A DNA stretch of 64,000 nucleotides from Mobula hypostoma (taxonomy: Eukaryota): the NCBI RefSeq assembly GCF_963921235.1, contig NC_086097.1:71426001-71490000 (forward strand). The letters are read 5' to 3'. A model generated the notes under the pieces. That model was not told the origin of the DNA. It made no database searches and saw only the letters and a list, made by a program, of their open reading frames with translations. Of the stretch, positions 1 through 63,000 are shown in pieces. The stretch's first letter is position 1; each line of letters starts with the position of its first letter. The translations under genes were made by a program, and so were the position numbers.

Positions 1-1000
1 TCCAAAGTTGAACAATAGCCCCTTATCTTTAGCTCAAACTCAAACAGGCTGAAAGCAGAACAGACTGCTCTTATAGAACTGCTAAAATTCAACTTCCTGC
101 AGCATAGAAGTAAAAACCTTAACCATGGTGTTGCACTTGTGATTAGATTCTGAATGCAGTGCAGGATCTTGAAATGGGAGTTGATGATTGGTGAGAGAGG
201 GAAAGATGTATTTAATGTGGAAGAGCTATCATTTAGCCTACTTGAGGACCTATTCGAGGTATGTTCCCAATGTTAAATTATTTAGCCTGGGACCTTTGAT
301 TAATGATGGAGTGGGCCTTGCACACTGTGAAGGTTTGCTTCTACATCAGTGAGCCAAACCATGCATGGGCCACAGCAGAATTCTTTTAAATCATGAAAGA
401 GGCATTAAGATGTGAATTGTAGACTAATGGACATTATTACAAGTCAAACACACAAAGTACATGAAGGACTCTTGGTTCAATGCACAAGTTGCAAATTTCC
501 TCCATTAAAATTTTCATTGGAAATCAATTGTGAGGTACATGAACATTGTCCTCTGCAACAGGATTTCTGGGCCAGCTTTATTCATTAAAGAAAACTTTGG
601 TGATCAAATAAAGAACACTGTTGTGATGTTTGAAATGATTGTTTAGCCCAATTACTCCCCTTAGCACTGATTATGGGCAGATAACTACGCATGTGCATTA
701 ATCTGTTCTCTCTCTCTCTCTCTTCAATATGATTACACCAGTTAAAGCCACCTCCGCTTGTGTGTCTTTATTTAATTGATATGTAGTTGTACAGACACAA
801 CAAATTGGCGACAAGTGAAAACCTGAATGTCAGCAAATGTCACCAACTGCACAGACAGTTACAGGACGACAGACTTCGGAGGAAGGGGGAGAGACAGTGA
901 GAGGAAAGAGTGAATCAGTATGGAGAAGACAGTCACTGACACCAACAAAGGGCACATGATTAACTGTATATACACAGTGAAAGATGCAGAACTAGCAAAA

Positions 1001-6301: not shown

Positions 6302-6361
6302 TGTAATAAATAACCACAAATTTTTAAAGATCTTAATTGTAAAATAAATTGCATTCATATA

Positions 6362-14473: not shown

Positions 14474-16303
14474 CTGTAAAATGAATGATTTTCAAACCGC
14501 TAAATAATGATAAAATTTGCACATTGCCTGCTAAGTGACTTTTGTAACAATTGTGTGACAATTTCTGAAATATAAACCATTCAAAATCGCTCGATTTTAT
14601 TTGACTTGCACATTGGGGAACAGTTTTTTTTATAAAGAATAAGCCTATTTTATAGAAAATTAAAAGCAAAATATTTAACGTGTTCAAAAATAACTACATT
14701 TTTTTATTTGCTTCATTCTTCAGGAAGAATAGAGCTACTATTTAAATGTACAAACAAATAATATATTAAGCGTTAGCGGGCGATGATAACACACTACATT
14801 GCGGTGCCATCTTTTAATCTTTTGGGTTTGAATCTACAATTAATAATCTGAGAGTCTAGTGAATTTAAAAGGGATTTATTTGAAACTAGTTCTTAATATC
14901 ATTAATGTGCCACAGTATCATGTTGTAGCAATGTCTCAATTTAGTTCTTTATTAAGACTTCTAAATAGGCACATTTTTACTGGGCAACCATAAAGATACT
15001 CAATACACTTCAGAAATTAAATTGGGATGAATTTGTTACAGAAAAATTATGAAGTGTATTCTTTGTAACTCAGCACTCCTGTGCAGACTCTTGACATACA
15101 ACCAATCAAGAGACCATTTTACTCAGGTACAAACCATGAGCATACCTACTCGATCTGTAAATTAATTACTATTTATTCAATTTGTTCGAACACTCTGAGA
15201 AATCTATACCCCATACTATCATTTTTATCTTCTAAGTATTATTTGCTAGCAGTTGGTACATTGGTTTATTATTGTCACATATAAACCAATCAAAATCAGT
15301 GTACAGTGAGGTACAATGAAAAGTTTATTTTGATTACCGTCGAGACAAATCATTTCATTCTGACCGTGCATTGACATACTATAAGGCAAAACGATAACAG
15401 AATGCAGAATGAAGTGTCACAGTTTCAGAGAAAGTGTGATGCGGGTAGACAAGAAGGTACAAGGCCATGACAAGGTAGATTATAGATCAACAGTCCATTT
15501 TATTGTATAAAAGGTCTGCTCAATAGACATCACAGCAGGATAGAAACTGTCCTTGAGCCTGGTGGTAGATGATTATAGGCCTTTGTATCTTCTGCCCAAT
15601 GGAAGAGAGAATGTTCAGGGTGGGTTGGGTCATTGATTAAGTTGGCAGCTTTACTAAGGTAGCGAAGCGTTGATTGTAATAGAAGGGAGGCTGTTTTTTT
15701 AGTGATGTGGTGAGCTGTGTTGACAACTCTCTTCAGTTTCTTGCAGTCACAGGCAGAGCACTTGCCATACCAAACCGTGATGCATCCAGATGGGATGCTT
15801 TCTCTGGTGCACTGATGAAAATTGGTGAGGGTCAAAGGATGCATGCCAAGTTTCTTTAGCCGCCTGAGGATGTAGTGGTGCAGGTGAGCTTTACTGGTCA
15901 TGGCATCAATGGAGTTGGAACAGGACAGGCTATTGGTGATGTTTACTCCTAGAAACTCAAAGCTCTGAATGCTTTCAACCTCAGCACTGTTGATGTAGAC
16001 AGGAGCACGTGCACTTCTCTCCTTCCTAAAGTCAGTGACCAGTTCTTTTATTTGCCGACATTGTGGAAGCAGTTGTTGTCATGACACCAGGTTTCTAAGT
16101 TCTCTATCTCCTTATGGGGACTTAGTGTTATTTGAGATTCAGCCCACTATGGTGGTATTATCTGAAAACTTGTAGATGGAGTTAATGCAGAATTTTAGAG
16201 TATGTGTCTGAGGATGCAGCCCTCTTGTGCATCAGTTTGGACAACACACATCAAAGTTGCTGGTGAACGCAGCAGGTCAAGCAGCATCTATAGGAAGAGG
16301 CGC

Positions 16304-16339
16304 AGTCGACGTTTCAGGCCGAGACCCTTCGTCAGGACT
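16304..16339 (-). ncRNA. Minimal type-I hammerhead ribozyme
   Basis: AGUC CUGACGA AGGGUCUCGGCCU GAAA CGUC GACU, intact. Confidence 0.82.
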
Positions 16340-16632
16340 AACTGAAGGAAGAGTGAGTAAGGGATTTGAAAGCTGGAGGGGGAGGGGGAGATGCAAAATG
16401 ATAGGAGAAGACAGGAGGGGGAGGGATGGAGCCGAGAGCTGGACAGGTGATAGGCAAAAGGGGATACGAGAGGATCATGGGACAGGAGGCCTAGGGAGAA
16501 AGACGGGGGGGGGGTGACCCAGAGGATGGGCAAGAGGTATATTCAGAGGGACAGAGGGAGAAAAAGGAGAGTGAGAGAAATAATGTGTGCATAAAAAGGA
16601 GTAACAGCTGGGGTACGAGGGGGAGGTGGGGC

Positions 16633-16959
16633 CTAGCGGAAGTTAGAGAAGTCAATGTTCATGCCATCAGGTTGGAGGCTACCCAGACGGAATATAAGGT
16701 GTTGTTCCTCCAACCTGAGTGTGGCTTCATCTTTACAGTAGAGGAGGCCGTGGATAGATATGTCAGAATGGGAATGGGATGTGGAATTAAAATGTGTGGC
16801 CACTGGGAGATCCTGCTTTCTCTGGCGGACAGAGCGTAGATGTTCAGCAAAGCGGTCTCCCAGTCTGCGTCGGGTCTTGCCAATATATAAAAGGCCACAT
16901 CGGGAACACCGGACGCAGTATATCACCCCAGTCGACTCACAGGTGAAGTGTTGCTTCAC
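16633..16959 (-). pseudogene. PLE GIY-YIG endonuclease domain fragment
   Basis: VIY...YIG motif with CxxC, plus the conserved R, H, E and N residues of PLE endonucleases. Confidence 0.85.
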
Positions 16960-19900
16960 CTGGAAGGACTGTTTGGGGCCCTGAATGGTGGCAAGGGAGG
17001 AAGTGTAAGGGCATGTGTAGCACTTGTTCCGCTTACACGGATAAGTGCCAGGAGGGAGATCAGTGGGGAGAGATCAGTTTGGAGATGGATTTGCTTGGAT
17101 TTACAGTATCGTTGAAGGCAGAGCTGTAGTCAAGGCATTAGCGTATGTATCTTTACTGCCCAGATGCTTCAAAGATGGTGTCCGCCATAGACCTGTTTCA
17201 GCAGTAGGTGAATTGAAGAGGAACAAGGATGTCAGGGATGCGAGCCATGACCCACTTCTCCTAGCACTTCATAATGGAGGATATCAGAGGCAGCAGGTAG
17301 TAGTCATTAAGGTTCATTACCTTGTTTTTCTTAGGTACTGGGATGATAGTAGTGTTAATACAGGTAGGAACCTCAGAATGAAACAGTGAGAGTTTAAAAA
17401 CATCTGCAATCACCTCTACCAGCTGATCTACTCAAGATGTAAGGACACAGCGAGTGATGGTGACCAGGCCAGATGCTTTCCATGAGTTCGCTCTCCGGAA
17501 GACTGATCTTGCATCTGCAATGCTGACTCGGAATCGAGGTGCATTGGTAGCTGTCAGGGCAGGTGTGACATTCCAATCCTCTTCTGTTCAAAATATGGAC
17601 AGACTGTGTTGAGCTCACTGGGGAAGGATGCATTGTTGTCAGTAATGCTGCCTGACATTGTTTCGTGGTACATTATAGCAACGGTTGCACTGATCTGGGA
17701 CTCAATTTTGGACAAGTTTTGTCTATTGGCATCTAGGAGAGCTTTACAGACACCATATCTTGATTTATTTTGTAAATATCAGGGCCATCTGACTTTTGAA
17801 CACTGCAGTGCTTGACTTCAAGTAGAGAGTGGATCTCCTGGTTCATCCATGACTTTCTCTTTGTGAACACCTGGACTGTCGTCTTTGATGCACAGTTTTG
17901 AACACACTTGCTGATAAAGTCCATGACAATGGGGACATACTTAAATTGGCTACTGAGTCTTTGAGCAGGGACCAGTCTACTGACTCCAAGTAATTGCGTG
18001 GAAACTCATCTATTTCCTCAGACCAGCACTGTACAACTTTCTGTTCTGGAGCCTCCCATTTCAGCTTCTGTTTGTATGCAGGGAGAAGGAGCACAAACTG
18101 ATAGTCTCATTTACCAAAGTGTAGGAGGGGAGTAGGTGTGTTCGGTTGTGTAGCAATAGTCAAGGGGGTATTTGGGCCCCGGGTGGGACAGGTGACATGC
18201 TGGTAGTATTTTGCCCACTCTTGAAGATGGCCTAGCTGAAGTCACCGATTACTGTGCTTAAATACTCTGGGTATCCTGTTTCATGATGATCATGGAGTAT
18301 ATTTCATTGCATACAGGCTTCATGTCTACCTGGGGTGGAATGTAGACACCTGTCAGCATAGCTGAAGTGAACTCCTAAGGCAGCTAATATCTAACTATTA
18401 GATATTCCAAGTTGGAACTCCAAACATGCAGATTTTAATTTGGTTAATGCTGAATGTTACCTCAACATTTGCAAATTTATTTTAGTTTTTTATCTTTAAC
18501 AAAGCTTATAATGAAAATTACTCGGTTACTGTACACACAGAAAAAATGTTGCTTATCAAAATTAATAATTTTTCATTGTAGCATGCCTATCTTAAAATAA
18601 CATTAGCAATGCAAAGCATGAGCCATTGTCCATGAAAAAAATAAAGAGATGAAATGTTTACAAGTAACAGAGAAATTCAAATAAAGGCATATCTGCCAGG
18701 ATACTATCTTAAAAAGAAAAGCTTTTTAATGTGAAAATATTTTGTTGCCAGCATTTAACGGAATTTGTTCAGAGATTCTTTTATTAAAATTTAATGAATA
18801 ACATAAACTTCAAATGTATTAAATGGTGCAGTAAGTTCTCCTCAAAGTAGTGCTCAACTGTATTAATGGAGATGAACATCAGTTTGCATACCAATTTATG
18901 GCTTGCACATACAATTCCAGGTTTTTATGTCTCATAAAAATGATTTTTTTTAGGTAGGTTTCCACCACCTTTTCAACACCACATCAAGTTCATTGCTCAG
19001 TATAGTAAAAGGACCACAAGACCATAAGCCATTGGAGCAGAATTAGGCCATTCAGCCCATCGAATCTGCTCTGCCATTCGATCATGGTTGATCTCTGATC
19101 CTACTCAACCAACACAATACTCTCCTATAAGACCACAAGACAAAGGACAAATTGATGTTTCATAGGACTCGATGGTTGTGTGACTCTTCTTCACATTCAT
19201 GTGCTTAATTTAGAACTGGGAACTAGAAGCACAATTTCAAAATTAGCAGTCTGTAGTTTTTGCCAGCATTGAGAAGAACTTCTCAGTGTTAGCAAAAAAC
19301 TATGAAAAGACATTAGTAGATTTTCAGAATAGATGTGCAACTAGCTCTTAAAGTACTATATAGGAAAATGCAATAATGCAAAAATGCAATATAGGAAAAT
19401 GCTAAGAGTGGGAGATGATCTGATGGTTAGCTGATGTGAGTCTTTGAGATTTTAAAAGGGTTTGCTAGGATTAATGCAGAGCAAAAGCTCTGTTTCTGGG
19501 CTAAACCAGACTAATGGGCCGTTATGATAAAATAGGCAGTTATAAGTACAATAAGGAAGAAGTTCCCAAAGTTTTTTTAAGGTAGCACCCTTCAGAATGA
19601 TTTCACTTTTTATATCATTATGTCATCTCTCAAAAATTACAAACATTGAATAAAATACTGTTTTGACAATGACGCCATCCCCTGGCTACACCCCGCGCCC
19701 AAATGCTGCCTGCCTCAAAGTTTGAAAACCTATGGAAACAGAAAAATATGGATAAATATATACCAAATGTAATTCAAGGAAGTATACTACTGATCCTAGT
19801 TTGAGGGGGTCTTCTAGAATACTGTGTATACCTTTGCATGTAGAGTCAGAGTCAAGTTCAAAGTTCACGTTTATTATTAAAGTATTTATACCGTATACAA

Positions 19901-23584: not shown

Positions 23585-23807
23585 AGAAGAAAAAGAGAAT
23601 AGAGGTTAAAGATCATTACTCCGGCCAGAGGAAAATGGACTGCAAGTTCTGTAAACAGAACAATATTTTGTTTCATTATCATCATCATCATCAGGTGCCA
23701 TGCCCAGTTTGAGCTTTGTTTGCCATGGCCCGCACATTCCTGTTTTGGGTCAAGTGGATCCATTCATTGGCATTCATTTCCAGTTCTCTGGCTGCTGTCT
23801 CCATCAT

Positions 23808-25366
23808 GACACACATAAAATGCTGGTGAATGCAGCAGGCCAGGCAGCATCTATAGGAAGAGATACAGCCGATGTTTCGGGCCAAGACCCTTCGTCAGGA
23901 CTAACTGAAAGAAGAGGTAGTAAGAGATTTGAAAGTGGGACGGTGGGGGGGGGGGAAGATCTGAAATGATTGGAGAAGACAGGAGAGGGTGAGATGGAGC
24001 TAAGAGCTAGAAAGTTGATTGGCAAAAGGGATACAAGGCTGGAGAATGGAGAGGATCCTGGGACGGGAAGCGTAGGGAGAAAGAAAGGGGGAAGGGAGCC
24101 CAGAGGATGGAGAGCAGGCAAGAAGTTATAGTGAGAGGGACAGAGGGAGAAAAAAGAGAGAGAGAAAAAAGGGAAAAAAATTACAATAATAAATAAATAA
24201 ATAAATAAATATATATAAACAAGTGATGGGGCATGAAGGGGAGGAGGGGCATTAATGGAAGTTAGAGAAGTCAATGTTCATGCCATCAGGTTGGAGGCTA
24301 CCCAGACAGAATATAAGGTGTTGTTCCCCCAACCTGAGTGTGGCTTCATCTTTACAGTAGAGGAGGCCATGGATAGACATATCAGAATGGGAATGGGACG
24401 TGGAATTAAAATGTGTGGTCACTGGGAGATCCTACTTTCTCTGGAGGACAGAGCGTAGGTGTTCAGCGAAACGGTCTCCCAGCCTGTGTCAGGTCTTGCC
24501 AATATAAAGAAGGCCACACTGGGAACACCAGACGCAGTATATCACCCCAGCCGATTCACAGGTGAAGTGTCGCCTCACCTGGAAGGACTGTCTGGGGCCC
24601 TGAATGGTGGTAAGGGAGGAAGTGTAAGGGCATGTGTAGCACTTGTTCCGCTTACAAGGAAAAGTGCTGGGAGGGAGATCGATGGGAAAGGATGGGGAAG
24701 GGGAAAGAATGGAAAAGGGAGTCACGTAGGCAGCGATCCCTGCGGAAAGCAGAAAGGTGGGGGGAGGGAAAGATGTGCTTAGTGGTGGGATCCCGTTGGA
24801 GGTGGCAGAAGTTACGGAGAATTATATGTTGGACCTGGAGGCTGGTGGGGTGGTAGGTGCGGACAAGGGGAACCCTATTCCTAGTGGGGTGGCGGGAGGA
24901 TGGAGTGAGAGTAGATGAGCGTGAAATGGGGGAGATGCGTTTGAGAGCAGAGTTAATGGTGGAGGAAAGGAAGCCCCTTTCTTTAAAAAAGGAGGACATC
25001 TCGTTCGTCCTGGAATGAAAAGCCTCATCCTGAGAGCAGATGCGGCGGAGATGGAGGAATTGTGAGAAGGGGATGGCATTTTTGCAAGAGACAGGGTGAG
25101 AAGAGGAATAGTCCAGATAGCTGTGAGAGTCAGTTGGCTTATAGTAGACATCAGTAGATAAGCTGTCTCCAGAGATAGAGACAGAAAGATCAAGAAAGGG
25201 GAGGGAGGTGTTGGAAATGGACCAGGTAAACTTGAGGGCAGAGTGAAAGTTGGAGGCAAATTTAATGGTCACATTCCACGTCCACGTCCCATTCCCAGCT
25301 GTGTTCACCAGCATTTTGTGTGTGTTACTTGAATTTCCAGCATCTGCAGATTTCCTCGTGTTTACA
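23808..25366 (-). mobile_element. 5'-truncated Penelope-like element with a short inverted terminal arm
   Basis: 10-bp TSD TCTCCATCAT at 23798-23807 and 25367-25376. RT thumb (LPFLDLSV..TDVYYKPTDSHSYLDYSSSHP) and GIY-YIG (VIYCVWCSQCGLLYIGKT). An inverted copy of the 3' repeat lies at ~25298-25364. Confidence 0.92.
23867..23902 (-). ncRNA. Hammerhead motif variant (GAAACAUC)
   Basis: AGUC CUGACGA A-GGG-UCUUGG-CCC GAAA CAUC GGCU. The core is intact but the stem III palindrome is disrupted. Confidence 0.6.
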
Positions 25367-25580
25367 TCTCCATCATCATTTGTCTTTGTCTTCCTCTTGC
25401 TTTCTTCCCTTCAACCTTTCCCATAACTACCGTGCATTCAAACTCCTCTTTCCTAATCACATGTCCAATGAAGTTATGTTGCCTTTTCATGATCTCCTAC
25501 ATTATTTCTCCTTTTGTTTTTGCTCTGTTCATGACATCCTCATTAGATATTCGTTTTGTTCATGATATTATTTGCATCCT

Positions 25581-27003
25581 CCTCAAAAAAGGAGGGAGAG
25601 AGAAACCAGGGAATTATAGACCGGTTACCCTGACATCGGTGGTGGGGAAAATGCTACAGTCAGTTATCAAAGATGTGATAACAGCACATTTGGAAAGCGG
25701 TGAAATCATCAGACAAAGTCAGCATGGATTTGTGAAAGGAAAATCATGTCTGACGAATCTCATAGAATTTTTCGAGAATGTAACTAGTAGAGTGGATAGG
25801 GGAGAACCAGTGGATGTGGTATATTTGGATTTTCAAAAGGCTTTTGACAAGGTCCCACACAGGAGATTAGTGTGCAAACTTAAAGCACACGATATTGGGG
25901 GTATGGTATTGATGTGGATAGAGGATTGGTTGGCAGACAGGAAGCAAAGAGTGGGAATAAATGGGACCTTTTCAGAATGGCAGGCAGTGACTAGTGGGGT
26001 ACCGCAAGGCTCAGTGCTGGGACCCCAGTTGTTTACAATATATGACTTAGACGAGAGAATTAAATGCAGCATCTCCAAGTTTGCGGATGACATGAAGCTG
26101 GGCGGCAGTGTTAGCTGTGAGGAGGATGCTAAGAGGATGCAGGGTGACTTGGATAGGTTAGTTGAGTGGGCAAATTCATGGCAGATGCAATTTAGTGTGG
26201 ATAAATGTGAGGTTATCCACTTTGGTGGCAAGAACAGGAAAACAGATTATTATCTGAATGGTGGCCGATTAGGAAAAGGGGAGGTGCAACGAGATCTGGG
26301 TGTCATTGTACACCAGTCACTGAAAGTGGGCATGCAGGTACAGCAGGTGGTGAAAAAGGCGAATGGTATGCTGGCATTCATAGCAAGAGAATTGGAGTAC
26401 AGCAGCAGGGAGGTTCTACTGCAGTTGTACAAGGTCTTGGTGAGACCACACCTGGAGTATTGTGTGCAGTTTTGGTCCCCTAATCTGAGGAAAGACATCC
26501 TTGCCATAGAGGGGGTACAAAGAAGGTTCACCAGATTGATTCCTGGGATGGCAGGACTTTCATATGATGAAAGACTGGAACGTCTCAGCTTATACTCACT
26601 GGAATTTAGAAGATTGAGGGAGGATCTTATTGAAACGTATAAAATTCTAAAGGGATTGGACAGGCTAGATGCAGGAAGATTGTTCCCAATGATGGGGAAG
26701 TCCAGAACAAGGGGTCACAGTTTAAGGATAAAGGGGAAACCTTTTAGGACTTAGATGAGGAAAAACTTCTTCACACATCTGTGGAATTCTCTGCCACAGG
26801 AAACTGTTGGGGCCAGTTCATTGGCTATATTTAAGAGGGAGTTAGAAAGGCCCTTGTGGCTAAAGGGATCAGGGGGTATGGAGAGAAGGTAGGCATAGGG
26901 TTCTGAGTTGGATGATCAGCCATGATCATACTGAATGGCAGTGCAGGCTCGAAGGGCCGAATGGCCTACTCCTGCACCTATTTTCTATGTTTCTATGTTT
27001 CTA
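25581..27003 (+). mobile_element. Young 5'-truncated CR1 (RT) nested in RTE
   Basis: Open RT NYRPVTLTS..YLDFQKAFDKVPH..GVPQGSVLGP..FADD and a (TTTCTATG)n tail. Near-identical by eye to 38320-39761. Confidence 0.93.
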
Positions 27004-28819
27004 AAAACTACATCTCTGCTGCTTCAATTCGTTTCCTCATGTTATTAGATATTGTCCAACATAACTGGATAAACGTAACATTTCATTACTCTGAGGCAGG
27101 TTGTCATGCCTAGTTCAGTATTGGTCAGTATACTCTTCATTCTCGTAAAGGTGTCTTTTGCCATCCCTATTCTTCTTTTGATGTCCATGTCGCCCCTGCC
27201 ATCTGATGTCACCCAGCAAATGTTCTGTACTTGTTTTATGTCTTCCCCATTTATTCTCAGCCTGCAGATAGGATTCTTATTCTTTTTGGATATCACCATA
27301 CATTCTGTTTTTTTGCAATTGATAGATAGACCCATTTTTGCACTCTCTTCAACAACTATATCAATTAAGTTTTGTAATTCTTCCTCCATACTTGCAATTA
27401 GCATAGTGTCATCTGCGTATCTGAAATTATTGATGTTTTCACCGCCAACTTTGATTCCCAAGATGTCTCTTATTTTTTGTAATATTGTTTCACTGTACAC
27501 ATTAAATAAATCAGGGGAGAAAACACATCCTTGTCTAATGCCCCTCTTGATTTTCATTAACTGACTCACTTCTCCATCTATTCTTACAGCGGCAGTTTGT
27601 TCCCAGTACAGATTTCATTATAAGAAGGTTATAGAACTGCTTTTATAAGGTGGGAGATGGTGGGTAGGGAAATCAGATGTGTGCAGAAAGACTCGCAGAG
27701 TGTATTTATTGCAGGATATGTAACTAAATTCAGATTGCAGATCTGTGATTCCATAGTGTATTGAATTGCATATGTTAAATGTAAGGCTGAAAAACAGAAA
27801 GAAATCACATACTCTGAGCTGACTTCTTACATACTGAAGGCCTGGCAATCAGAATAAGCAAGATCCGAAGCCAGTGGAAGACAAGCTTGAGCTATGGGAT
27901 CATGCAAGCAAGACTGGAGATGAAAATTGGCAGAGGGAACTGATGAAGGCCTGCAGTGACAGCTTGGCCACGGACCAAAATTTGGCTGTAAAAGTACGAG
28001 CTTTCTACAACTAAGTCACTGTAGTCAGTAACAGGGAGCTTGCTGATCAAGAAGCAGAAGTTATATACATTCTCCCTGTGACCACATAGTTTTTATCCTA
28101 TTCTCCAGTTTCCTCCCACAATCTAAAGAAGTACCAGTTGCTAGGTTCATTGGGCATTGTAAATTGTTCTGTGATTAGGCTAGGGTTAAATCAGAAGATT
28201 GCTGGGCGTTGCGGATCAGAGGGCCAGAAGGCCTTGTTCCGTGCTGTATCTCAATAAATAATATTTTAAAAATTAATTAATCTTCAATTTATATGAAGAT
28301 AAATCGTCACAGAATAAGAAAGTCTGTATTTCTATTAATTCCCCAGGTCAGATTAGTAAAACTAGCATTAGTTTAAATCCTGTGTCACTGGTAAATGTAG
28401 ATAGATTTAGCAGAAATAATTGCCTTATACTTCCACAGGGGTCACTACCAGCACCGTCACTTCTTGGTGACTTGGATTTGAAAATACAGGGCATAATTTC
28501 TGAATATGTAGATGCCACAGGATTTGGATGGGTGAATCATGGAAAGTGAGTCAGTAAGCAGAAGATCGCATATAATGCTGGAAAATACAAAATGTTATAT
28601 CTTGGTAAGAAGAATGAGAAAAGGAAATACAAACTGGAGAACACAATTGTAAGAGAAGTAAAAATCATAGGTTATATGTGCACAGTTCTTTGAAATCATC
28701 AGTTGAGGCTTGGGAAGGTGGTTAGAAATACATCTTGATCAGGGGCTTTTTAATTAGAGGCATTTGAGAACAAAAACCAAGAAATCATAATAAACCTTTA
28801 TACAAAAATACATAGGTTT

Positions 28820-30415
28820 CAACTGAAGCTACCAAAACTAGAGAGAAGGTTCTTGGGAAACAGAAAGGTCTGAAGGTAGATAAGTCACCTGGACCAGATG
28901 GTGTACACACCAGGGATCTGAAAGAGGTGGCTGAAGAGATTGTGGAGGCATTAATAATGATCTTTCTAGAATCACTAGATACTGCAATGATTCTGGAAGA
29001 CTGGAAACTTGCAAATGTCACTCCACTCTTCAAGAAGTGAGAAAGGCAGAAGAAAGGAAACTATAGGCCAGTTAGTCTGACCTCAGTGGTTGGGAAGATG
29101 TTGGAGTCAACTATTAAGGATGAGGTCTCAGGGCACTTGGAGGCACATGATAAAATAGGCCATAGTCAGCAAGGTTTCTGCCTGACAAATCTGCTGGAAT
29201 TCTTTGAAGAAATGGCAAGCAGGATAGACAAGGGAGTTTCAGTTGATGTGTACTTGGATTTTCAGAAGGCCTTTGACAAGGTGCCACACATGATGCTGCT
29301 TAACAAGCAATGAGCTCATAGTATTACAGGAAATATTCTGGCATGGATAAAGCAGTGGTTAGTTGGCAGGAGGCAAAGAGTGGGAATAAAGGGAGCATTT
29401 CCTGGTTGGCTGCCGGTGACTAGTGGTGTTCCGCAGGGGTCTGTGCTGGGACCGATTCTTTTTACGTTACATGTCAATGATTTAGATGATGGAATTGATG
29501 GCTTTGTTGCAAAGTTTGCAGACAATATGAAGAAAAGTAGTTCAGAGGAAGTAGAAAGGCTACAGAAGGACTTAGATCAGAAAAATGGGCAAAGAAATGA
29601 CAAATGGAATACAGTGTTGGGTATTGTATGGTCATGCACTTTGGTAGAAGAAATGAAAGGGTTAACTATTTTCTAAATGGAAGGAAAATATAGTAAAACT
29701 GAGGTGCAAAGGTACTGGGGAGTCCTTACGCAGGATTCTCTAAAGGTTAATTTGTAGGTTCAGTCTGTGATGAAGAGGGCAAATGCAATGTTAGCATTCT
29801 TTTTAAGAGGATTAGAATATAAAAACAAGGATGTGATGTTGAGACTTTACAAAGCACTAGTGAAGCCTTCCTTAAAGTATTGTGAGAAGTTTTGGGCCCC
29901 TTTTCTTAGAAAGGATGTGCTGAAACTGGAGAAGATTCATGAAAATGATTCCAGTATCGAATGGCTTGTCATATGAAGAGCGTCTAATGGCTCTGGGCCT
30001 GTATTTGCTGGAATTCAGAAGAATGAGGAGTGGCCTCATTGAAACCTGTCAGATGGTGAAAGGCCTTGAGAGAGTGGATGAGAAAAGGATGCTTCCTATG
30101 GTGGGAGAGTCTAAGACCAGAGGACACAGCCTCAGAATAGAGGGGCGTCCTTTTAGAACAGAAATGAGGAGGAATTTCTTTAGCCAGAAGGTGGTGAATC
30201 TATGAAATTCTTTGCCACAGGCAGCTGTGGAGGCCAAGTACTTATATATGTTTAAGTCAGAGGTTGATAGATTCTTGATTGGTCAAGCATGAAGGGATAT
30301 AGGGAGAAAGCAGGAGATTGGGACTGAGAGGAAAATTAGATCAGCCATGATGAAATGGCGGAGCAGATTCAATGGGCTGAATGGCCTAATTCTGCTCCTA
30401 TATCTTATGGTCTTA
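28820..30415 (+). mobile_element. CR1 RT fragment, decayed
   Basis: KSPGPDG, LDFQKAFDKVPH, GVPQGSVLGP and KFAD motifs, with a TCTTATGG tail. Confidence 0.88.
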
Positions 30416-30509
30416 TTCGTTTCTCTGTGCCATGGTTTCCAAACGATGTAAAGGTTTTAAGTGTGTTGAGGGGATTACATAACATGATCACTAGAATGAG
30501 ACTAATTAT

Positions 30510-33490: not shown

Positions 33491-34737
33491 TAGAATGTGA
33501 GAAATTCAGTAATCATGGAGCATTGTTTCTTGGAGTTACATCTGTAGGATAGAAACCTGCCACTGCTCAAGATGAAATTGGTAGTCTGTGTAGTCATAGA
33601 CACAAGAGATTCTGCGGATATTCATCTGCTTGGTAAGAGTGGCTATTAGATATGATATACTTTTTTTGCTGGGAGCAGTGGAAATGAGCAGAAAGAAATA
33701 CAGTATTTGCTGAATAATGGCGCCGAGGGAAACCACTTGGAGAGATGTAAATTGCCATGGTTCCTATCCCCACTGCTGGTAGATATGGAAGGATGTCAGG
33801 TAATGAGGAGGTGTAATTGGCTTGAACTTTACACACCCTTCTCCGTGAAAACTGTGCCTCCTTTTGCTGGAATTAGATACTTTCAAACCCACTCAGCTAA
33901 TAGTATACTCCTGACCTCTATCACTCAAATGCATTTGGAGAATACGGTCTAGAATCATGTCCGGCGACAAACTAGTTCCCAGAAAAATCCAATCAGAGTT
34001 GAATTACTTTACTTCAGGAAACATCTTGGCTGACAGAAACAATTTAATGTGTTATACGAATGCAGCAGCAAACCCTGGACTGAGACAAACATCAGCTTAT
34101 CTCCAAGTATTGTGGATGACTGGGGGCCTGTGACTCATCTATGACTATTCCTGCTGCTAATACTATTTTTTGGTATGGATTGGTTTGAACATTGAATCAA
34201 TAGGTCAACAATAAAGTTACTTACTCTCAGTGAAGACTGCTGTCAAGCAAGGTAGAACCTTTGTCCCAATGTTTTCCTGTTTGTGTGCAAACAGAAGCTG
34301 AGATCCAAGACATCACTGATTCATTCACATATGAGAGGATGAGTATTACACTCAAAATGTACAAGATGAAAGCTACTCTCTGAACCCATCCCCATTAACT
34401 TCTACCAATTAAGACTCATGGCAAGACACAGGAAAAGCATGGAAAAGCCACGTTCCAAACCTGGGGAGCCACTTCTGGTGAAGGTATGTATTGGTAATGA
34501 ACTTTACCGTCATCCTTAATTAAGGAACTGGGTACTTAAAGACCGTCTTCAGAGTTGGCACAAATTCATGGCCTACCAGTTACGGTGATGCCTGCTCTGC
34601 TATACTTCGAAATCTTCTTGAGCAGACATTAGAATCAGAAAACAACAGGAATTCTGCAGATGCTGGAAATTCAAGCAACACACATCAAAGTTGCTGGTGA
34701 ACGCAGCAGGCCAAGCAGCATCTATAGGAAGAGGCGC

Positions 34738-34773
34738 AGTCGACGTTTCAGGCCGAGACCCTTCGTCAGGACT
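34738..34773 (-). ncRNA. Hammerhead ribozyme, tandem unit 1
   Basis: AGUC CUGACGA AGGGUCUCGGCCU GAAA CGUC GACU. Confidence 0.82.
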
Positions 34774-34816
34774 TGGTGAACGCAGCAGGCCAAGCAGCAT
34801 CTATAGGAAGAGGCGC

Positions 34817-34852
34817 AGTCGACGTTTCAGGCCGAGACCCTTCATCAGGACT
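34817..34852 (-). ncRNA. Hammerhead ribozyme, tandem unit 2
   Basis: AGUC CUGAUGA AGGGUCUCGGCCU GAAA CGUC GACU. Confidence 0.82.
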
Positions 34853-34922
34853 TGGTGAACGCAGCAGGCCAAGCAGCATCTATAGGAAGAGGCGCAGTCG
34901 ACGTTTCAGGCCGAGACCCTTC

Positions 34923-34956
34923 GTCCTGACGAAGGGTCTCGGCCTGAAACGTCGAC
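34923..34956 (+). ncRNA. Hammerhead motif on the inverted arm
   Basis: GUC CUGACGA AGGGUCUCGGCCU GAAA CGUC GAC, with a 3-bp stem I. Confidence 0.7.
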
Positions 34957-35109
34957 TGCGCCTCTTCCTATAGATGCTGCTTGGCCTGCTGCGTTCACCA
35001 GCAACTTTGATGTGTGTTATTAGAATCAGATTCAGGTTTATTATCACCGACATATTGTGACATTTGTTGTTTCATGGCAGCAGTACAGTGAATACAATAT
35101 GTTTCTTTA

Positions 35110-35595: not shown

Positions 35596-37010
35596 ATACA
35601 GTATATATAGGATACAAGATATACAGTATAATAAATATTACATATATAAAGAAATAGTGCAAATGAGAGCAAAATGGAAAGGTAGTGTTCTTGTGTACAT
35701 GGTTCATTCAGAAATCCAATGGCAGAGGTGAAGAAACTGTTTCTAAGATGTTAAGCACTGTGCCTTCAGGCTCCATATCTTCTCTCTGATGGCAGCAATG
35801 AGAAGAGGGCGTGTCATGGGTGGTGCGGATCCTTGATAATGGATGCCACCATTCTGAGGAACACTTTTGACCTTCTGTCCACCAACAGCTTCAACACAAC
35901 TGGTTCTTTAAACCATTGCAATCTCTTTCTTGCCAAAATTATTCACGCCCACCAAGATCATCTAAAAAGGAGAAAGCTTCATACAAATTTCTTACATTGT
36001 AAATCAGTTCTTCAGATCTCCTCCATTTCATCCACGCGTCAGACCCAATATGCAGGAAAATGATTGAGTATTGTGTGTCTAACTCTGGTGATATCAACAA
36101 AGATTATCTGCTCTGTCCATTCACTCTCGCAAAATTTTAACTTTTATTCTAAGCACTTAATCCCCTTAGCTAAACTAGTCAATGAAATCCACCACTTATT
36201 CCTTTGATCTCTTCCTATTCCAGTTCTTGAGCACCCAACCGCCTTGTGTTTCATTGCCGCCAAATATCATATGTGGTCTTTAGCACTACCTCACTTTCTG
36301 CAGAATATTCCTTCATACATTCATCCTAAAATACCCCTCATTAAACCACTTGTCACCAAATGCAGAAATGCAGTAAACAAACAACTTAATCAAATAATTG
36401 AAGGAAAAATAATCACAGGGATAAAGAGAAAGAGTTTGAGTGAGACGAAATGGGAATCTTCAGCAAAGAGCCAATGCAACTACAATGACCAAATGACCGC
36501 CTCCTGTGCAGCACTGTTCTACGTTGTTTTTAGTAAGCTCTTTCCTCAAAATATAATAACAAATATTTCCAGCTGATTCATTCCCACTCACTTCATGTAG
36601 TTCAAGAGTTGTGAGGTAGTGTTGCAGCTCTGGTTAGATCACACTTAGGGTGTTGTGTTCAGTTCTGGTCTCCTCATTATAGGAAGGAAGTTTTAGAGAG
36701 GATGCAGAGGACATTTACCAGGACAATGCCTGGATTTGAGAACATACCTTATGAGGAAAGGTTGAGTGCTCTTCTCGTAGGAGTGAAGATGGATGAGAGG
36801 CCACTTGATAGAGGTGCAGAAGATTATAAGTGGCATGAATGGAATGGAAAGCTAGCATCTTTATCCCAGGGCAGCAATAATCTATACCACAGGACATCCA
36901 TTTAAAGTGAGTGGAGGAAAGTTTAGGGGAGAGGTAAGAGGTAGATTTTGTTTTTTGCGTTCTAGTAGTAAGTGCCTGGAACACAATGCTGATACAAAAC
37001 AGCCATTCAA

Positions 37011-39761
37011 TATTCAGGAGGGATAGACATGAAGGAAGGGGAGGTGGGGTGGCGTTGCTGGTTAAAGAAGAGATTAACGCAATAGAAAGGAAGGACATAA
37101 GCCAGGAAGATGTGGAATGGATATGGGTAGAGCTGCGTAACACTAAGGGGCAGAAGATGCTGGTGGGAGTTGTGTACAGGCCACCTAACAGTAGTAGTGA
37201 GGTCGGAGATGGTATTAAACAGGAAATTAGAAATGTGTGCAATAAAGGAATAGCAGTTATAATGGGTGACTTCAATCTACATGTAGATTGGGTGAACCAA
37301 ATTGGTAAAGGTGCTGAGGAAGAGGATTTCTTGGAATGTATGCGGGATGGTTTTTTGAACCAACATGTCGAGGAACCAACTAGAGAGCAGGCTATTCTGG
37401 ACTGGGTTTTGAGCAATGAGGAAGGGTTAATTAACGATCTTGTCGTGAAAGGCCCCTTGGGTAAGAGTGACCATAATATGGTGGAATTCTTCATTAACAT
37501 GGAGAGTGACATAGTTAATTCAGAAACAAAGGTTCTGAACTTAAAGAGGGGTAACTTTGAAGGTATGAGACGTGAATTAGCTAAGATAGACTGGCAAATG
37601 ACACTTAAAGGATTGACGGTGGATATGCAATGGCAAGCATTTAAAGGTTGCATGGATGAACTACAACAATTGTTCATCCCAGTTTGGCAAAAGAATAAAT
37701 CAAGGAAGGTAGTGCACCCGTGGCTGACAAGAGAAATTAGGGATAGTATCAATTCCAAAGAAGAAGCATACAAATTAGCCAGAGAAAGTGACTCACCTGA
37801 GGACTGGGAGAAATTCAGAGTTCAGCAGAGGAGGACAAAGGGCTTAATTAGGAAGGGGAAAAAAGATTATGAGAGAAAACTGGCAGGGAACATAAAAACT
37901 GACTGTAAAAGCTTTTATAGATATGTAAAAAGGAAAAGACTGGTAAAGACAAATGTAGGTCCCCTACAGACAGAAACAGGTGAATTGATTATGGGGAGCA
38001 AGGACATGGCAGACCAATTGAATAATTACTTTGGTTCTGTCTTCACTAAGGAGGACATAAATAATCTTCCAGAAATAATAGGGGACAGAGGGTCCAGTGA
38101 GATGGAGGAACTGAGGGAAATACATGTTAGTAGGGAAGTGATGTTAGGTAAATTGAAGGGATTGAAGGCAGATAAATCCCCAGGGCCAGATGGTCTGCAT
38201 CCAGAGTGCTTAAGGAAATAGCCCAAGAAATAGAGGATGCATTAGTGATAATTTTTCAAAACTCGTTAGATTCTGGACTAGTTCCTGAGGATTGGAGGGT
38301 GGCTGATGTAACCCCACTTTTTAAAAAAGGAGGGAGAGAGAAACCAGGGAATTATAGACCAGTTAGCCTAACGTCGGTGGTGGGGAAACTGCTGGAGTCA
38401 GTTATCAAAGATGTGATAACAGCACATTTGGAAAGCTGTGAAATGATCAGACAAAGTCAGCATGGATTTGTGAAAGGAAAATCATGTCTGACGAATCTCA
38501 TAGAATTTTTCGAGAATGTAACTAGTAGAGTGGATAGGGGAGAACCAGTGGATGTGGTATATTTGGATTTTCAAAAGGCTTTTGACAAGGTCCCACACAG
38601 GAGATTAGTGTGCAAACTTAAAGCACATGGTATTGGGGGTAAGGTATTGATGTGGATGGAGAATTGGTTAGCAGACAGGAAGCAAAGAGTGGGAATAAAC
38701 GGGACCTTTACAGAATGGCAGGCGGTGACTAGTGGGGTACCGCAAGGTTCAGTGCTGGGACCCCAGTTGTTTACAATATATATTAATGACTTGGATGAGG
38801 AAATTAAATGCAGCATCTCCAAGTTTGCGGATGACACGAAGCTGGGTGGCAGTGTTAGCTGTGAGGAGGACGCTAAGAGGATGCAGAGTGACTTCGATAG
38901 GTTGGGTGAGTGGGCAAATTCATGGCAGATGCAATTTAATGTGGATAAATGTGAAGTTATCCACTTTGGTGGCAAAAATAGGAAAACAGATTATTATCTG
39001 AATGGTGGCTGATTAGGAAAAGGGGAGGTGCAACGAGACCTGGGTGTCATTATACACCAGTCATTGAAAGTGGGCATGCAGGTACAGCAGGTGGTGAAAA
39101 AGGCAAATGGTATGCTGGCATTTATAGCGAGAGGATTCGAGTACAGGAGCAGGGAGGTACTACTGCAGTTGTACAAGGCCTTGGTGAGACCACACCTGGA
39201 GTATTGTGTGCAGTTTTGGTCCCCTAATCTGAGGAAAGACATCCTTGCCATAGAGGGAGTTCAAAGAAGGTTCACCAGATTGATTCCTGGGATGGCAGGA
39301 CTTTCATATGAAGAAAAACTGGATGAACTGGGCTTGTACTCGTTGGAATTTAGAAGATTGAGGGGGGATCTGATTGAAACGTATAAAATCCTAAAGGGAT
39401 TGGACAGGCTAGATGCAGGAAGATTGTTCCCGATGTTGGGGAAGTCCAGAACAACGGGTCACAGTTTGAGGATAAAGGGGAAGCCTTTTAGGACCGAGAT
39501 TAGGAAAAACTTCTTCACACAGAGAGTGGTGAATCTGTGGAATTCTCTGCCACAGGAAACAGTTGAGGCCAGTTCATTGGCTATATTTAAGAGGGAGTTA
39601 GATATGGCCCTTGTGGCTACGGGGATCAGTGGGTATGGAGGGAAGGCTGGGGCGGGGTTCTGAGTTGAATGATCAGCCATGATCGTAATAAATGGCGGTG
39701 CAGGCTTGAAGGGCCGAATGGCCTACTCCTGCACCTATTTTCTATGTTTCTATGTTTCTAT
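37011..39761 (+). mobile_element. Young CR1 with most of ORF2 (APE plus RT), nested in an older CR1 3' end (36600-39925)
   Basis: ORFs 36986-38221, 38206-39012 and 39028-39663 show GVVYRPPN, MGDFN, SDH, KSPGPDG and FADD. The only visible lesions are one frameshift (~38206) and one CGA>TGA stop (39010). (TTTCTATG)n tail. Confidence 0.95.
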
Positions 39762-55643: not shown

Positions 55644-57479
55644 TTTAATAATTATGAACTTTGAAGTTGCAGACAATTTGTAGGGGCCTTTACTGGTAGG
55701 TTTTCAAACACCAACAAATTTGAAAGATTAACTTTCAAATAATATGCAAGGGTCTGCATTCAGTTCACATTTACCAAGGCAAGCGAACCACAGAAGTAAA
55801 AAAAAACTCACTTCAAGAAGGCTTGTTAACTGCTTAGTCTGTTAAGCTTCAGTTACCATGGTAGCCAGTGTTGAAAACTCTACAGATTGGTATAAAAAAT
55901 CATGTCGACAATTGCTCTGTCACAGCATGGAGGCAGACCTGTTCAAAAGCAGCACACCATGAGCTTTTCTTCCCAGTTTGCACTACCCCATGCAGTCTAA
56001 TAATATCCATTTACTGGCTGCAGATTGATCTAGTGTAGAAACTTGTAACTAGTCATGTTCCAGCATTCCCCCCACCCCCAAGATGGGCATTGCAAGAAAT
56101 TGTCAATGAGGCACTTTATTAAGCAATTCCCAATTACATAAGAATGTTTTTATAATTAAACACAACTACTTTGTTTTTAATATCATGATGCTGAAATTAA
56201 AAAAGCTACCATCTAAATGTATCCTTTAAAATAGTGATGATGATACAGGGTTATGGGCAAAATGGTAACAAACATATTTTAAATTATGTCGAAATAAATG
56301 ATAACTTAAGCAGCTTAGGGGAGGCATGCAGTTTTTAGTGCAGTGTACTATTTTGTGGATGCGACTCAACGCAAAGTTGTGAGTATTTGTGTCAAGAATT
56401 GGGTCTTCAATTGGTTACAAAATTTTAAAAGCAAAACTATGAGAGTAAACTTGCAAGCATAACCTCCCATGATAGCAGGATACTTCAATGCAATTTCAGA
56501 TTCCAACCAGAGTTAATGTGTAAAGTATGGGCCCAGAGTGACGAGGGATGCAGAAGGGAATGTTTCACTTCTCTGACAGACATCACAGTATTTGAGTTGG
56601 ATACCAAACAAATTATCAAAAAAAATTCCACCCAATTTCTAGCCCACTCTCAGCTCTTCTCCATGATTGAAAGACAAATAACACTTACTTACAACATGGA
56701 GTGATTAGGTTCATTGCAGATGTTTCAACTACAGCTGGATCCTTCCAACATCAGCTCAAGTTAGCCTAATTTCCAACTGAGTCGACTCTCAAACACACAT
56801 TAATTCCTAGACACAAGAGCTTCTGCAGACGCTGGAAATCTCCCATTAATTCTTGCTATGTGCATGCATTGATGTTACATTTGCAATGTCAGTCCTGTAT
56901 TACATGAAAATAATATGTTACTGCTGCACTCCCAGCAGTTACCTAAAGACACGTGATGGGAACAAATATGCACGAGGCATTTTCAGACTGTGCACTTGGT
57001 ACAAATGTGACAAATATGCCCCATGATATATTTCAAGCTGAAAACCTATTTAACTAAACTTTTAACAGAACATGTTCAAAACGTATCTCAACCATCTACA
57101 AAATAATTAATTTTACAAAGATAATTTTCATTATTGCCTTCGGATTCACTGATGAAGGATCTTGGCTCGAAACATCAACTCTTTACTCCTTTCTATAGAT
57201 GCTGCCTGACCTGCTGAATTCCCCCAACATTCTGTGTGTGTTACTGCAGATTTTCAGCATCTGCAGAATCTCTGTTTTTGAACTCATATCTGGTTTAACT
57301 ACTCCCCCTCCCCCACGATTTCAAAAAATGCTCATGTCAAGTGGATGAGCCTTAGAAACAGGGGAATTTTTAAGCAAGCAACTCCAAAGGCAGCCCCAAT
57401 ATTGTCCTCATATACTGTATAAACAATCTGGAGTTGTGACCTTGACCAATATCATTGTTCCTAATCAGGGGTCACTAGA

Positions 57480-58150: not shown

Positions 58151-58263
58151 AGTAATGCTTAGCCACACAGACATAAGAATAAGCATCATTGCTGTAGTTA
58201 TCTTTTTAATTCTTTATTTTAGAACACTGCAGCTTTCTAAAAGAATTGCTATATCTTTTACAA

Positions 58264-60150
58264 GCACGAGAAAACCTGTAAATGCTGGAAATCCAAAGCA
58301 ACACACACAAAATGCTGAAGGAACTCAGCAGGCCAGGACCAGTGACCAGTGACCAATGTTTCAGGGCACAACCCTTCATCAGGACTGGAAAAGAAGGGGA
58401 GAAGTCAGAGTAAGAAGGTGGAGGGAGGGGAGAAAGAACTACAAGGTGGTAGGTGAGAGGTGAAACCGTGAGAATAGGAAGGGTGAAGTAAAGGGCTGGG
58501 AAGTTGACTGGTGAAAGAGATAAAGGGCTGGAGAATAGGGAATCTGATATGAGAGGACAGAAAACCATGGAAGAAAAGGAAGGGGGAGGAGCACCTGAGG
58601 GAGGTGATGGGCAGACAAAAAGAGAAGGTATGAGGGGGAAACAGGAATGGGGAATGGTGAAAGTGGGGGAGGGAATTAGCAGAAATCAAGAAATGGATGT
58701 TCATGTCAAAATGTTGGAGGCTGCCCAGTTGAAATATAAGGTGTTCTCCTCCAAACTGAGTATGGTCTCATCCTGGCAGTAGAGGAGACTATGGGCTGAT
58801 GTATCAAAATGGGAATGGAAATGAGATTGGGACGTAAAATTAAAATGGGTGGCCACAGGGAAATCCCGCTTTTCTGTGGCAGCTGGAGCAAAGCTCCTCG
58901 GTGAAGCAGTCTCCCAATCTACATAAAGTCTCAGTGATATACAGGAGTCCATGCCGGGATCACTGGATACAGTTGATGACTCCAACAGACTCATAGGTAA
59001 AGTGTCGCTTCACTTGAAAGGACAGTCTGGGGCCCTGAATGGTCGTGAGGGAGGAGGTGTAGGGACAGGTGTGGTGCTTGTTCTGCTTGCAAGGATATGT
59101 GCCAGGAGGAAGATCACTGGGGAGGGACGAGTGGACAAGGGAATCATGTAAGGAGTGGACCCTGTGGAAAGTGGGATGGGGGAATAGGGAAGTTGTGCTT
59201 GCTGGTGGGATCCTGTTGGGAATGGTGGAAGTAAAGGAGAATTATACGCTGGATGCAAAGGCTTGTGGGGTGGTAGGTGAGGACAAGAGGAACCCTATCC
59301 CTGGTCTGGCGGCAGAAGGATGGGGTGAGGGTAAATGTGTGTGAAATAGAATTGATGCATTTGATGACAGTGCTGATGGTGGAGGAAGGGAAGCTCCTTT
59401 CTTTGAAGACGGAGAGCATCACAGTTGCTCTGGAATGAAAAGCCTCATCCTTAGAGAAGATGCGTTGAAGATGGAGGAACTAAGAAAAGGGAATGGCATT
59501 TTTACAAGTGACAGGGTAGGAAGAGGTATAGCCGATACCTGTGAGAATCAGTGGATTTAGAAAAGATATCAGTAGATAGCCTGTCTCCAGAGATGGAGAC
59601 AGAAAACTCAAGAAAGGGGAGAGAGGTATCAGAAATGGACCAAGTAAATTTGAGGCAAAGTTGATGAAATTGACGAACTACAGGAAGCCACACCAATGTC
59701 ATCATCAATGTAGCGTAGGAAGAGTTGAGGAGTGATGCTGGTGTAGGCTTGGAACACGGACTGTTTCACATAGCTGATGAAAAGGCACGCATAGCTGGAC
59801 CAATATGAGTACCCATGGCTACACCTTGGGTTTGAAGGTAGTGAGAGGAGCCAAAGGAGAAATTGTTGAGGGTGAGGACAGAAGAGAGTGATGGTGAAGG
59901 GGAACTGGTTGGGTTGGTTATCCTTGAGGCCCTCCTGATGGGTATAGAAGTCCATAGGTATTATTAAGGTTCATAGTGCAAATGAGACAACTGGGGCCGA
60001 GGAACTTAAAGTCATTGAAACGATGACAAGCATGTGAAGTGTCTCAGATGTAGGTAGGAAGGGACTGAGCTGGGGGGATAAAACAGAGTCAATGTATGCA
60101 GACAGAAGTTCTGTGCGGTAGGAGCAGGCAAAAACAATGGGTCTACCTGT
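58264..60150 (-). mobile_element. Older decayed Penelope-like element (RT plus GIY-YIG plus hammerhead repeat)
   Basis: GRPIV, QLFLRYIDD, LPFLE, RVPLVLTYHP and PVATHFN motifs. Hammerhead variant at 58351-58386 (CUGAUGA AGGG-UUGUG-CCCU GAAA). Confidence 0.85.
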
Positions 60151-61809: not shown

Positions 61810-62119
61810 CTGAGAAGCAACAGGATAGCAGTAATGGTTAAAGAAAAGGTAAATAGCATGTTTCCCAAGATCAATGATGAATCCTCTTTTTGCTCATATT
61901 CTTGAAATGTGGACATAATTTCATAATTTGATGTTTCAAAATTAAATTGCAAAATAAAAACAAGTATAGTTATGGAAGACACAAGAAAATATAACAAATT
62001 GTTAGGCAAGTGACAATAGCTTTTCAGTGTGGTAGAGTGAAAGACGGGGTATTTAAGGAACACACATCAAAGTTGCTGGTGAACGCAGCAGGCCAGGCAG
62101 CATCTCTAGGAAGAGGTAC

Positions 62120-62155
62120 AGTCGACGTTTCAGGCCGAGACCCTTCGTCAGGACT
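62120..62155 (-). ncRNA. Minimal hammerhead ribozyme
   Basis: AGUC CUGACGA AGGGUCUCGGCCU GAAA CGUC GACU. Confidence 0.82.
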
Positions 62156-62964
62156 ATCTGAAGGAAGAGTGAGTAAGAGATTTGAAAGTTGAAGGGGGAG
62201 GGGGCAATCCAAAATGATAGGAGAAGACCAGAGGGGGAGAGATGGAGCCAAGAGCTGGACAGGTACTTGGCAAAAGGGATACGACAGGATCATGGGACAG
62301 GAGGTCCAGGAAGAAAGACGGGGGGGGGGGAACCCAGAGGATGGGCAAGAGATATATTCAGAGGGACAGAGGGAGAAGAAGGAGAGTGAGAGAAAGAATG
62401 TGTGTATAAAAGTAAGTAACAGATGGGGTACGAGGGGGAGGTGGGGCATTAGCGGAAGTTAGAGAAGTCGATGTTCATGCCATGAGGTTGGAGGGCTCCA
62501 GCTTCCTCTCACCCCAACCCTCCCCTCTCCATTGACACCCCCAGCCTTCCCCCTCCCCCCTCTGATCCCAGCTCTCATCCGTGCCAGGTCTTTACCATCC
62601 CCACTGACCTTCAACTGTTGGAGGCAGAATGCTCTGTCCTCAGTAAGGGCCTCACCTTTGTCCCCCTTCGCCCACACCTCAGCGAGTTCTGCATTCGCCA
62701 TGATGCGGAACTCTTCTTCCGCCGTCTCCGTCTCCGAGCCTACTTCTTCTCTGTCCCTCTGAATATAGCCCTTGCCCATCCTCTGGGTTCCCCTCCCCCC
62801 CGTCTTTCTTCCCGGACCTCTGTCCCATGATCCTCTCGTATCCCATTTGCCAATCACCTGTCCAGCTCTTGGCTCCATCCCTCCCCCTCCTGTCTTCTCC
62901 TATCATTTTGGATCGCCCCCTCCCCCTCCAACTTTCAAATCTCTTACTCACTCTTCCTTTAGTT

Positions 62965-63000
62965 AGTCCTGATGAAGGGTCTCGGCCTGAAACGTCGACT
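62965..63000 (+). ncRNA. Minimal hammerhead ribozyme
   Basis: AGUC CUGAUGA AGGGUCUCGGCCU GAAA CGUC GACU. Confidence 0.82.

Follow-up and report, generated by a model that had tools for sequence, protein, structure and literature searches.

A palindromic Penelope-like mini-insertion with extra hammerhead-bearing laps in Mobula hypostoma, and tandem joins across its family

Within the 64,000-nt stretch of Mobula hypostoma DNA analyzed here (the window; contig NC_086097.1, positions 71,426,001 to 71,490,000), a 379-bp insert at 34640-35018 carries tandem hammerhead motifs, and an earlier note had proposed that it could release a circularizable 79-nt RNA. From its sequence we read this insert as a standard palindromic mini-insertion of the pseudo-LTR (pLTR) of a Penelope-like element (PLE) with two extra laps, real and ordinary in kind. 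It is probably one young pLTR insertion whose triplication took place during insertion, the reverse transcriptase (RT) reaching the 5' end of its RNA and re-priming 79 bases back twice. Hundreds of such stutter products exist for this abundant retrotransposon, and the locus alone is of little importance; the survey of its family makes two PLE questions testable from genomes, namely the in vivo cutting of the minimal hammerhead and the origin of tandem arrays derived from pLTRs.

Element coordinates are given here on the hammerhead strand (for the array, the minus strand of the window), with +1 as the A opening stem I and the predicted cut at +32/+33. Two 12-bp copies of a target-site duplication (TSD) at 34628-34639 and 35019-35030 (no strand) enclose the insert, as the earlier note had stated, and duplications of 11-16 bp flank many short family copies. 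The insert parses as +134..+1, +79..+1, +79..+7/10, and then an arm of +2..+97. On the minus strand lie the pLTR 3' end (+80 to +134, with an optional tail of ~35 nt; 34640..34694), which is the likely first priming site, followed by unit 1 (+1 to +79; 34695..34773; minimal type I hammerhead 34773-34738, predicted cut 34742/34741), unit 2 (+1 to +79; 34774..34852; hammerhead 34852-34817, predicted cut 34821/34820), and the partial unit 3 (+7 to +79; 34853..34925), which enters the central join and has no CUGA on the minus strand. The inverted arm on the plus strand is a second pLTR copy without the tail (+2 to +97; 34923..35018), and contains one more hammerhead core, the third, which is near-intact, has a stem I of 3 bp, and has its predicted cut at 34953/34954. 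The 79-bp period extends over 2.9 copies with 98% matches and unit starts at 34695, 34774, and 34853. The earlier description of three head-to-tail 79-bp units is thus right in starts and period, but the third unit is partial (73 bp). The 3' ends of the two arms, +134 and +97, are the two usual 3' ends of the family.

Units and arm meet in a head-to-head join (+2 to +9; 34923..34930, no strand) at the quasi-palindromic hammerhead start, likely the annealing point of two cDNA ends, and form a perfect 73-bp inverted repeat (34853-34925 vs. 34928-35000). That hairpin had been noted correctly, whereas the absence of CUGA from unit 3, taken for a local loss, is the family's standard head-to-head join. 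By hand count, the same central join is present in 26 of 26 best-hit hairpin loci (L005-L030; the query contained that join), 13 in each polarity, and such an even split would fit cDNA ends annealing at the quasi-palindromic start with the two central mismatches repaired either way. The inverted arm can also be aligned with unit 1 and the adjoining tail, for 104 nt with 97% matches, a longer stretch than it shares with unit 3. The arms and units differ by one base only, and the insertion is accordingly very young; unit 2 has a single CpG-type change at 34844, the variable core position. Organism B shares the window flank 34300-34639 with 5-6 differences in ~335 bases (runs X5 and X6), and its contigs diverge from the insert at or just before the TSD end, with 12 and 30 letters left over. 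In X5, an exact junction contig was absent among the matches listed. This gives a hint, though only a hint, of an empty site in organism B and hence of a recent insertion.

Palindromic, highly repeated sequence assembles poorly, and the whole insert is spanned by no contig, so the triplication might be suspected of being an assembly artefact, a doubt that the earlier note itself had raised. However, runs X2 and X3, which may be the assembly's own source sample, both contain two junction contigs (0 and 1 difference; depths 11.1/7.2 and 8/7.2) that feed one shared contig (depth 21.3/17.7; unique flank 11.3 in X2). The exact contig corresponds to junction 1, and the other deviates by one base as junction 2 does. 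The depths of the two junction contigs sum to that of the shared contig, which is about twice the flank in X2, and the CpG-type change further distinguishes the units. In run X1 the junction contig was absent among the matches listed. With both junction variants present in short-read contigs at the expected depths, we consider the triple repeat real and an artefact scarcely credible.

The 79-bp unit is assigned, by sequence, to the hammerhead-bearing part of the pLTR of an EN+ PLE. In the 3.48-Gb genome, we counted 63,268 exact matches to an 18-base core motif and 102,736 to a 28-base pattern downstream of it. Longer family copies in the window continue into RT-like coding sequence, and six long copies have frames of 763-1041 aa. 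Two full-length copies (L257 3146-6268 and L258 3015-6134, both minus strand) contain uninterrupted 1040-aa frames in which an RT (YIDD) is accompanied by a cysteine linker and by a CxxC-containing GIY-YIG-like motif, for which the Pfam matches are weak and below curated cut-offs (RVT_1 E 3.5e-5; GIY-YIG E 1e-3). The linker that separates RT from EN is of the type common to Neptune and Nematis, as defined in PMC8557442. L258 is organized as pLTR-ORF-pLTR, the repeat flanking the ORF, whose start codon follows a short way past +138. On this sequence evidence, activity of the family seems recent. Similar to EN+ PLEs as described in PMC8557442, PMC3846280, and PMC11167929, it has an ORF with RT and C-terminal GIY-YIG between pLTRs, an inverted 5'-truncated copy, a 30-40-nt optional tail, a TSD, and complex tandem or inverted insertions. 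Unlike in those descriptions, the insert here consists of pLTR only, and its tandem unit is a 79-bp part of the pLTR instead of a pLTR-ORF partial tandem.

We also parsed 68 consecutive, unselected loci on C1. Of their 82 arms, 67 have 3' ends at +95..107 (37) or +133..146 (30); ~13 of the loci are two-armed palindromes and 0 are hammerhead tandems. For an anole PLE, two internal RT start sites on uncut RNA, matching the optional tail, are reported in vitro (PMC11167929). Directly upstream of the hammerhead, L258 6260-6220 (minus) combines a pyrimidine tract with a branch-point-like motif and a pair of AG sites, and this 3' splice-site-like stretch overlaps two initiator-like motifs, at -3 and +1. 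An internal promoter is reported for the Drosophila pLTR (PMC2377424), and in D. virilis an intron is described as ending at the 5' end of helix I (PMC4209133).

Besides the insert, the family is represented in the window by at least seven further copies, which belong to the same sub-family or to older ones and several of which have TSDs and inverted pLTRs (5377-5592, 6064-6302, 16242-17100, 23806-25363, 57149-57279, 58262-59655, and 62051-63098). The window's own 252-aa frame has no Pfam match. Broken LINE-type RT/endonuclease frames are located at 25333-27614, 28855-30424, and 36715-39759, and no host gene was recognized among the window's frames of at least 150 aa.

The motif itself is a minimal type I hammerhead in which the core boxes, stems I and II, and a palindromic, loopless stem III are all present. 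The boxes, stem I, the palindromic ACGU, and the cuts at 34821/34820 and 34742/34741, 79 nt apart, are as first reported, and the motif features match those minimal PLE hammerheads for which a dimeric fold is presumed necessary. Metazoan PLE minimal hammerheads as described in PMC4209133 are likewise type I with a short stem I and a loopless stem III palindromic at 15.2-16.2, and have an extra base after the core and close copies on opposite strands. They differ from those here in stem II, which in this family mostly closes with G-U or A-U. The conserved G10.1-C11.1 pair is absent from the insert, where stem II closes G-U or A-U depending on register; across the 466 copies scored, the closing pair is G-U (or A-U) in 402 and G-C in 49. 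Rfam gave no match in the window at the gathering score, hammerhead families included, and sub-threshold miRNA matches (E<=10) were rejected as chance, driven by the perfect hairpin.

For units 1 and 2 supplying each other's stem III, as had been suggested, a nested double hammerhead can be drawn, but its predicted energy lies 18-39 kcal/mol above the ensemble. In ViennaRNA, and in both stem II registers, the active fold lies +18-21 kcal/mol from the ensemble without the arm and +39 with it; without the arm, the competing structure is a unit-to-unit duplex, 18-21 kcal/mol below the active fold. With the arm, 90.5 of 91 arm bases are predicted to pair at equilibrium with unit 1 and the tail, and the state with the arm on unit 3 is 20.5 kcal/mol less stable than the ensemble. 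Folding thus predicts that the arm pairs with unit 1, which the earlier note had named as a case against its own reading. The energies leave out tertiary contacts, trapping during transcription, and any help from proteins, and are uncalibrated on a known active dimer. Minimal PLE hammerhead dimers and trimers are reported to cut weakly in vitro (PMC4209133), 8 of 9 predicted Xenopus dimers are reported not to cut (10.64898/2026.07.22.740005), and an anole PLE hammerhead is described as cutting only with protein (PMC11167929).

Could the locus nevertheless work as a retrozyme, cutting twice, with its 79-nt RNA circularized and able to spread? A nested double hammerhead from units 2 and 1 is geometrically possible, the arm would meet unit 3 first during transcription and could be trapped there, and the family hammerhead probably cuts. 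By the operational definition in the preprint 10.64898/2026.07.22.740005, i.e., two or more successive units that hold a complete hammerhead and a motif MFE below -5 kcal/mol, the array falls within retrozymes: it has two consecutive full units, and 56-nt pieces of units 1 and 2 have MFEs of -14.2 and -12.4, although those folds are not the active one. The label "retrozyme-like" therefore holds in this loose sense, but not in the functional sense of PMC7229834, which involves a monomer family spread over loci (the junction here is found at this locus only), a canonical hammerhead in a monomer of ~220-350 nt (here minimal and 79 nt), and monomer RNA made in both linear and circular form. Metazoan non-LTR retrozymes (PMC7229834; 10.64898/2026.07.22.740005) are similarly described as tandem pLTR-derived units, each with a type I hammerhead, and 79 bp is inside the preprint's unit range of 51-972 bp. 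Expressed circle-forming retrozymes, in contrast, are reported to have monomers of ~300 bp, each present at many loci and for the most part carrying canonical hammerheads, with RtcB ligation of their larger monomers in vitro (PMC7229834), whereas the monomer here is single-locus, minimal, and hairpin-embedded. Against release and spread of a 79-nt circle also stand the costly active fold, unfavorable to the unit-to-unit duplex even without the arm, the closure of stem II by G-U or A-U instead of the conserved G-C, the weak cutting of minimal PLE dimers and the inert Xenopus dimers cited above, and the free 18-nt end of the arm, a putative toehold for unit 1 that would draw the arm away from the less stable pairing with unit 3. 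Further, the units are bounded at +79/+1 and not at the predicted cut, +32/+33. Given these models, a working retrozyme at this locus is very unlikely.

Four overlapping searches for tandem joins of the family gave 83, 161, 126, and 83 matches, with 100 matches listed for each of the 161 and 126, and from the matches listed we parsed 190 distinct loci after leaving out duplicates, 26 plain hairpins, and two unrelated loci. Backward joins are present in 182 of these 190 loci, and the parser estimated 69 different periods for them, ranging from 27 to 217. Among the matches listed, 70 of the 182 tandem loci re-enter at +1 or +2, a profile shaped in part by ascertainment, as the search patterns admit only re-entry up to +25 (before +3 in one search) and exit from +35 onwards. 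A period of 79 occurs in 1 of the 182 tandem loci among the matches listed, namely the insert at 34640-35018, and a few loci exit at +78..81 via short homology, giving periods of 70-80. The junction 16-mer has four exact matches in the 3.48 Gb: two here, one by chance, and one in an old unrelated copy. The search for other 79-bp-period arrays that the earlier note had recommended thus found the +79/+1 junction at no second locus, either by genome-wide 16-mer or among the 182 listed loci. Back-splicing was rejected as a source of the joins, since exits vary freely and no splice donors follow.

Several arrays contain more than one join. Of 46 such arrays among the matches listed, 33 keep one period and 13 do not; seven of the 13 have clearly unequal joins (L002, L047, L071, L073, L178, L236, and L244), mostly differing by 1-8 nt, and the other six have unrelated second joins or one-base differences in old arrays. 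The unequal joins in the seven arrays fit repeated jumps on linear RNA and not a closed circle, judging from sequence. Untemplated bases are present in 16 of 52 loci re-entering at +1 or -3, ending in G (10), A (3), or C (3), in a count that scores multi-unit arrays as templated and to which a T before +1 is invisible. An extra G is a signature of cap copying in LINEs, and the G-rich untemplated bases would fit a copied cap, an RNA start at +1 or -3, and an RT jumping from that end. The capped start at +1 is something that we infer only, and the spot also resembles a 3' splice site.

Taken together, we favor the following course of events. Both nicked target strands would prime cDNA on element RNA that begins at +1, probably a capped start; the RT would reach this end and jump twice, landing either on a free 3' end or on a short homology at +78/79; and the two cDNAs would anneal at the self-complementary hammerhead start. 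The tandem junctions hold +1..+6 in the orientation missing from the arm centre, and therefore the first duplication was made at insertion and not by copying of DNA after the palindrome was complete. RNA transcribed across the locus would form mostly a long hairpin and release little or no 79-nt RNA; the locus would therefore be a dead-end by-product and raw material for satellite-like "retrozymes." Template jumping with added nucleotides is reported in vitro for R2 and other RT classes, which are classes other than PLE RT (PMC8857657), and concatemers from linear RNA are reported for DRT2 (PMC12039810). Both systems resemble the insert in making tandem cDNA without a covalent circle, by analogy only given the different RT classes, and DRT2 is described with one programmed period, whereas the period here varies by locus. 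For head-to-head joins of this kind, Arkhipova et al. propose self-priming, with an antisense template as a possibility (PMC3846280).

The two joins at the insert are identical and alone do not separate jumping, a circle, and later DNA duplication. One RT jump could have made two units, with the third added afterwards by unequal crossing-over or replication slippage, as the identical joins would allow; the sister arrays L077, L102, and L165 are long, diverged minisatellites, and the preprint 10.64898/2026.07.22.740005 favors local amplification by unequal crossover. We nevertheless regard a late third unit as unlikely, because a very young insertion leaves little time and the seven arrays with unequal joins indicate that repeated events at insertion occur. 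The earlier note had thought of repeated or rolling reverse transcription, and repeated copying is indeed the likely origin, but rolling on a closed +1..+79 RNA (or DNA) circle, or ligation of RNA pieces before copying, is in our estimate quite unlikely. The exact period and blunt join, together with the 33 of 46 multi-join arrays that keep one period, speak for it, and circular templates have been proposed for PLE tandems (PMC4209133), as pre-ligation has been used to explain LINE-1 chimeras (PMC8857657). However, the array begins in sequence outside any such circle (the tail, +134..+80) and ends in a standard join, closure would be at +79/+1 and not at the hammerhead cut, a capped +1 is not ligatable, and other loci have unequal joins and extra G. 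Repeated jumping during insertion, if it is what happened, would provide a circle-free birth mechanism for animal "retrozyme" arrays, with 34640-35018 as a newborn three-unit example. The locus also carries a warning that a tandem hammerhead array recognized only by its sequence is not necessarily a retrozyme that makes circles.

Short laps that return to the start of the hammerhead (96 matches, all listed) bear on whether the hammerhead cuts in vivo. Their period histogram is 28:3, 29:3, 30:2, 31:2, 32:17, 33:6, 34:3, 35:6, 36:8, 37:10, 38:20, 39:16. Period 32 thus accounts for 17 of 96 laps against a neighbor average of 3.6 (Poisson p 2e-7 vs. seven neighbors chosen post hoc), and as 6 of the 8 laps at period 36 run -3..+32, 23 of 96 end in the cut register. 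Few laps are shorter than these: 27 matches spread over 15 spacings, of which 7 fall at a single homology. The 25 loci that were read (23 in register and 2 one base off) include several sub-families and both arm types. In eight of them, G replaces C+32, the outcome to be expected of a two-base overhang placed on an RNA 3' end at +32. We rejected the idea that the peak stems from a single spreading master that already contained a 32-bp duplication, given the several sub-families, both arm types, and some private variants common to the neighbor unit.

The +32 peak (including L263-L270 and L373-L392) is likely a fossil of in vivo hammerhead cleavage. Its simplest cause would be a free RNA 3' end made by the hammerhead, and ligation before copying would imply the same cut. 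Counting against this reading are the larger peak at 38-39, just past stem I, where there is no cut site, and the position of the cut site at the centre of a 6-base palindrome. If the 3' cleavage product served as template, a matching peak of cDNA stops at +33 would be expected; among the 100 hairpin joins listed of 1,484, ~11 stop at +33 by hand count, about half of these with GTC homology, and other homology stops are similar (+24: 7; +22: 5); among the unselected arms, 1 of 82 stops at +33. Anole RNA-seq is described as having no ends at the cut (PMC11167929). More broadly, the joins could form a replication fossil record, in which the RT jumped from capped 5' ends to free 3' ends and the +32 peak would record germ-line hammerhead cutting; this we put forward tentatively, at somewhat less than an even chance. 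If true, the peak would show PLE hammerheads to be active in vivo, for which the papers cited here describe evidence as lacking. Comparable lap-peak evidence was not found in the main texts and listings searched, and the tables of the preprint 10.64898/2026.07.22.740005 may list such arrays. For two sub-families, the 38-39 peak fits a cDNA fold-back making a 4-base palindromic homology, an account that does not extend to the youngest sub-family.

Some family arrays have grown much longer than the insert. Minisatellites of 7 to >25 units with periods of 36-62 bp are present at L077, L102, L165, L152, and L214, the old ones with diverged cores, and may be hammerhead-derived satellites in the making. 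At G000:C90:4119653-4223765, eight near-identical copies of an older-subfamily tandem join follow one another at distances of 3.5-48 kb, probably as parts of some larger tandem duplication.
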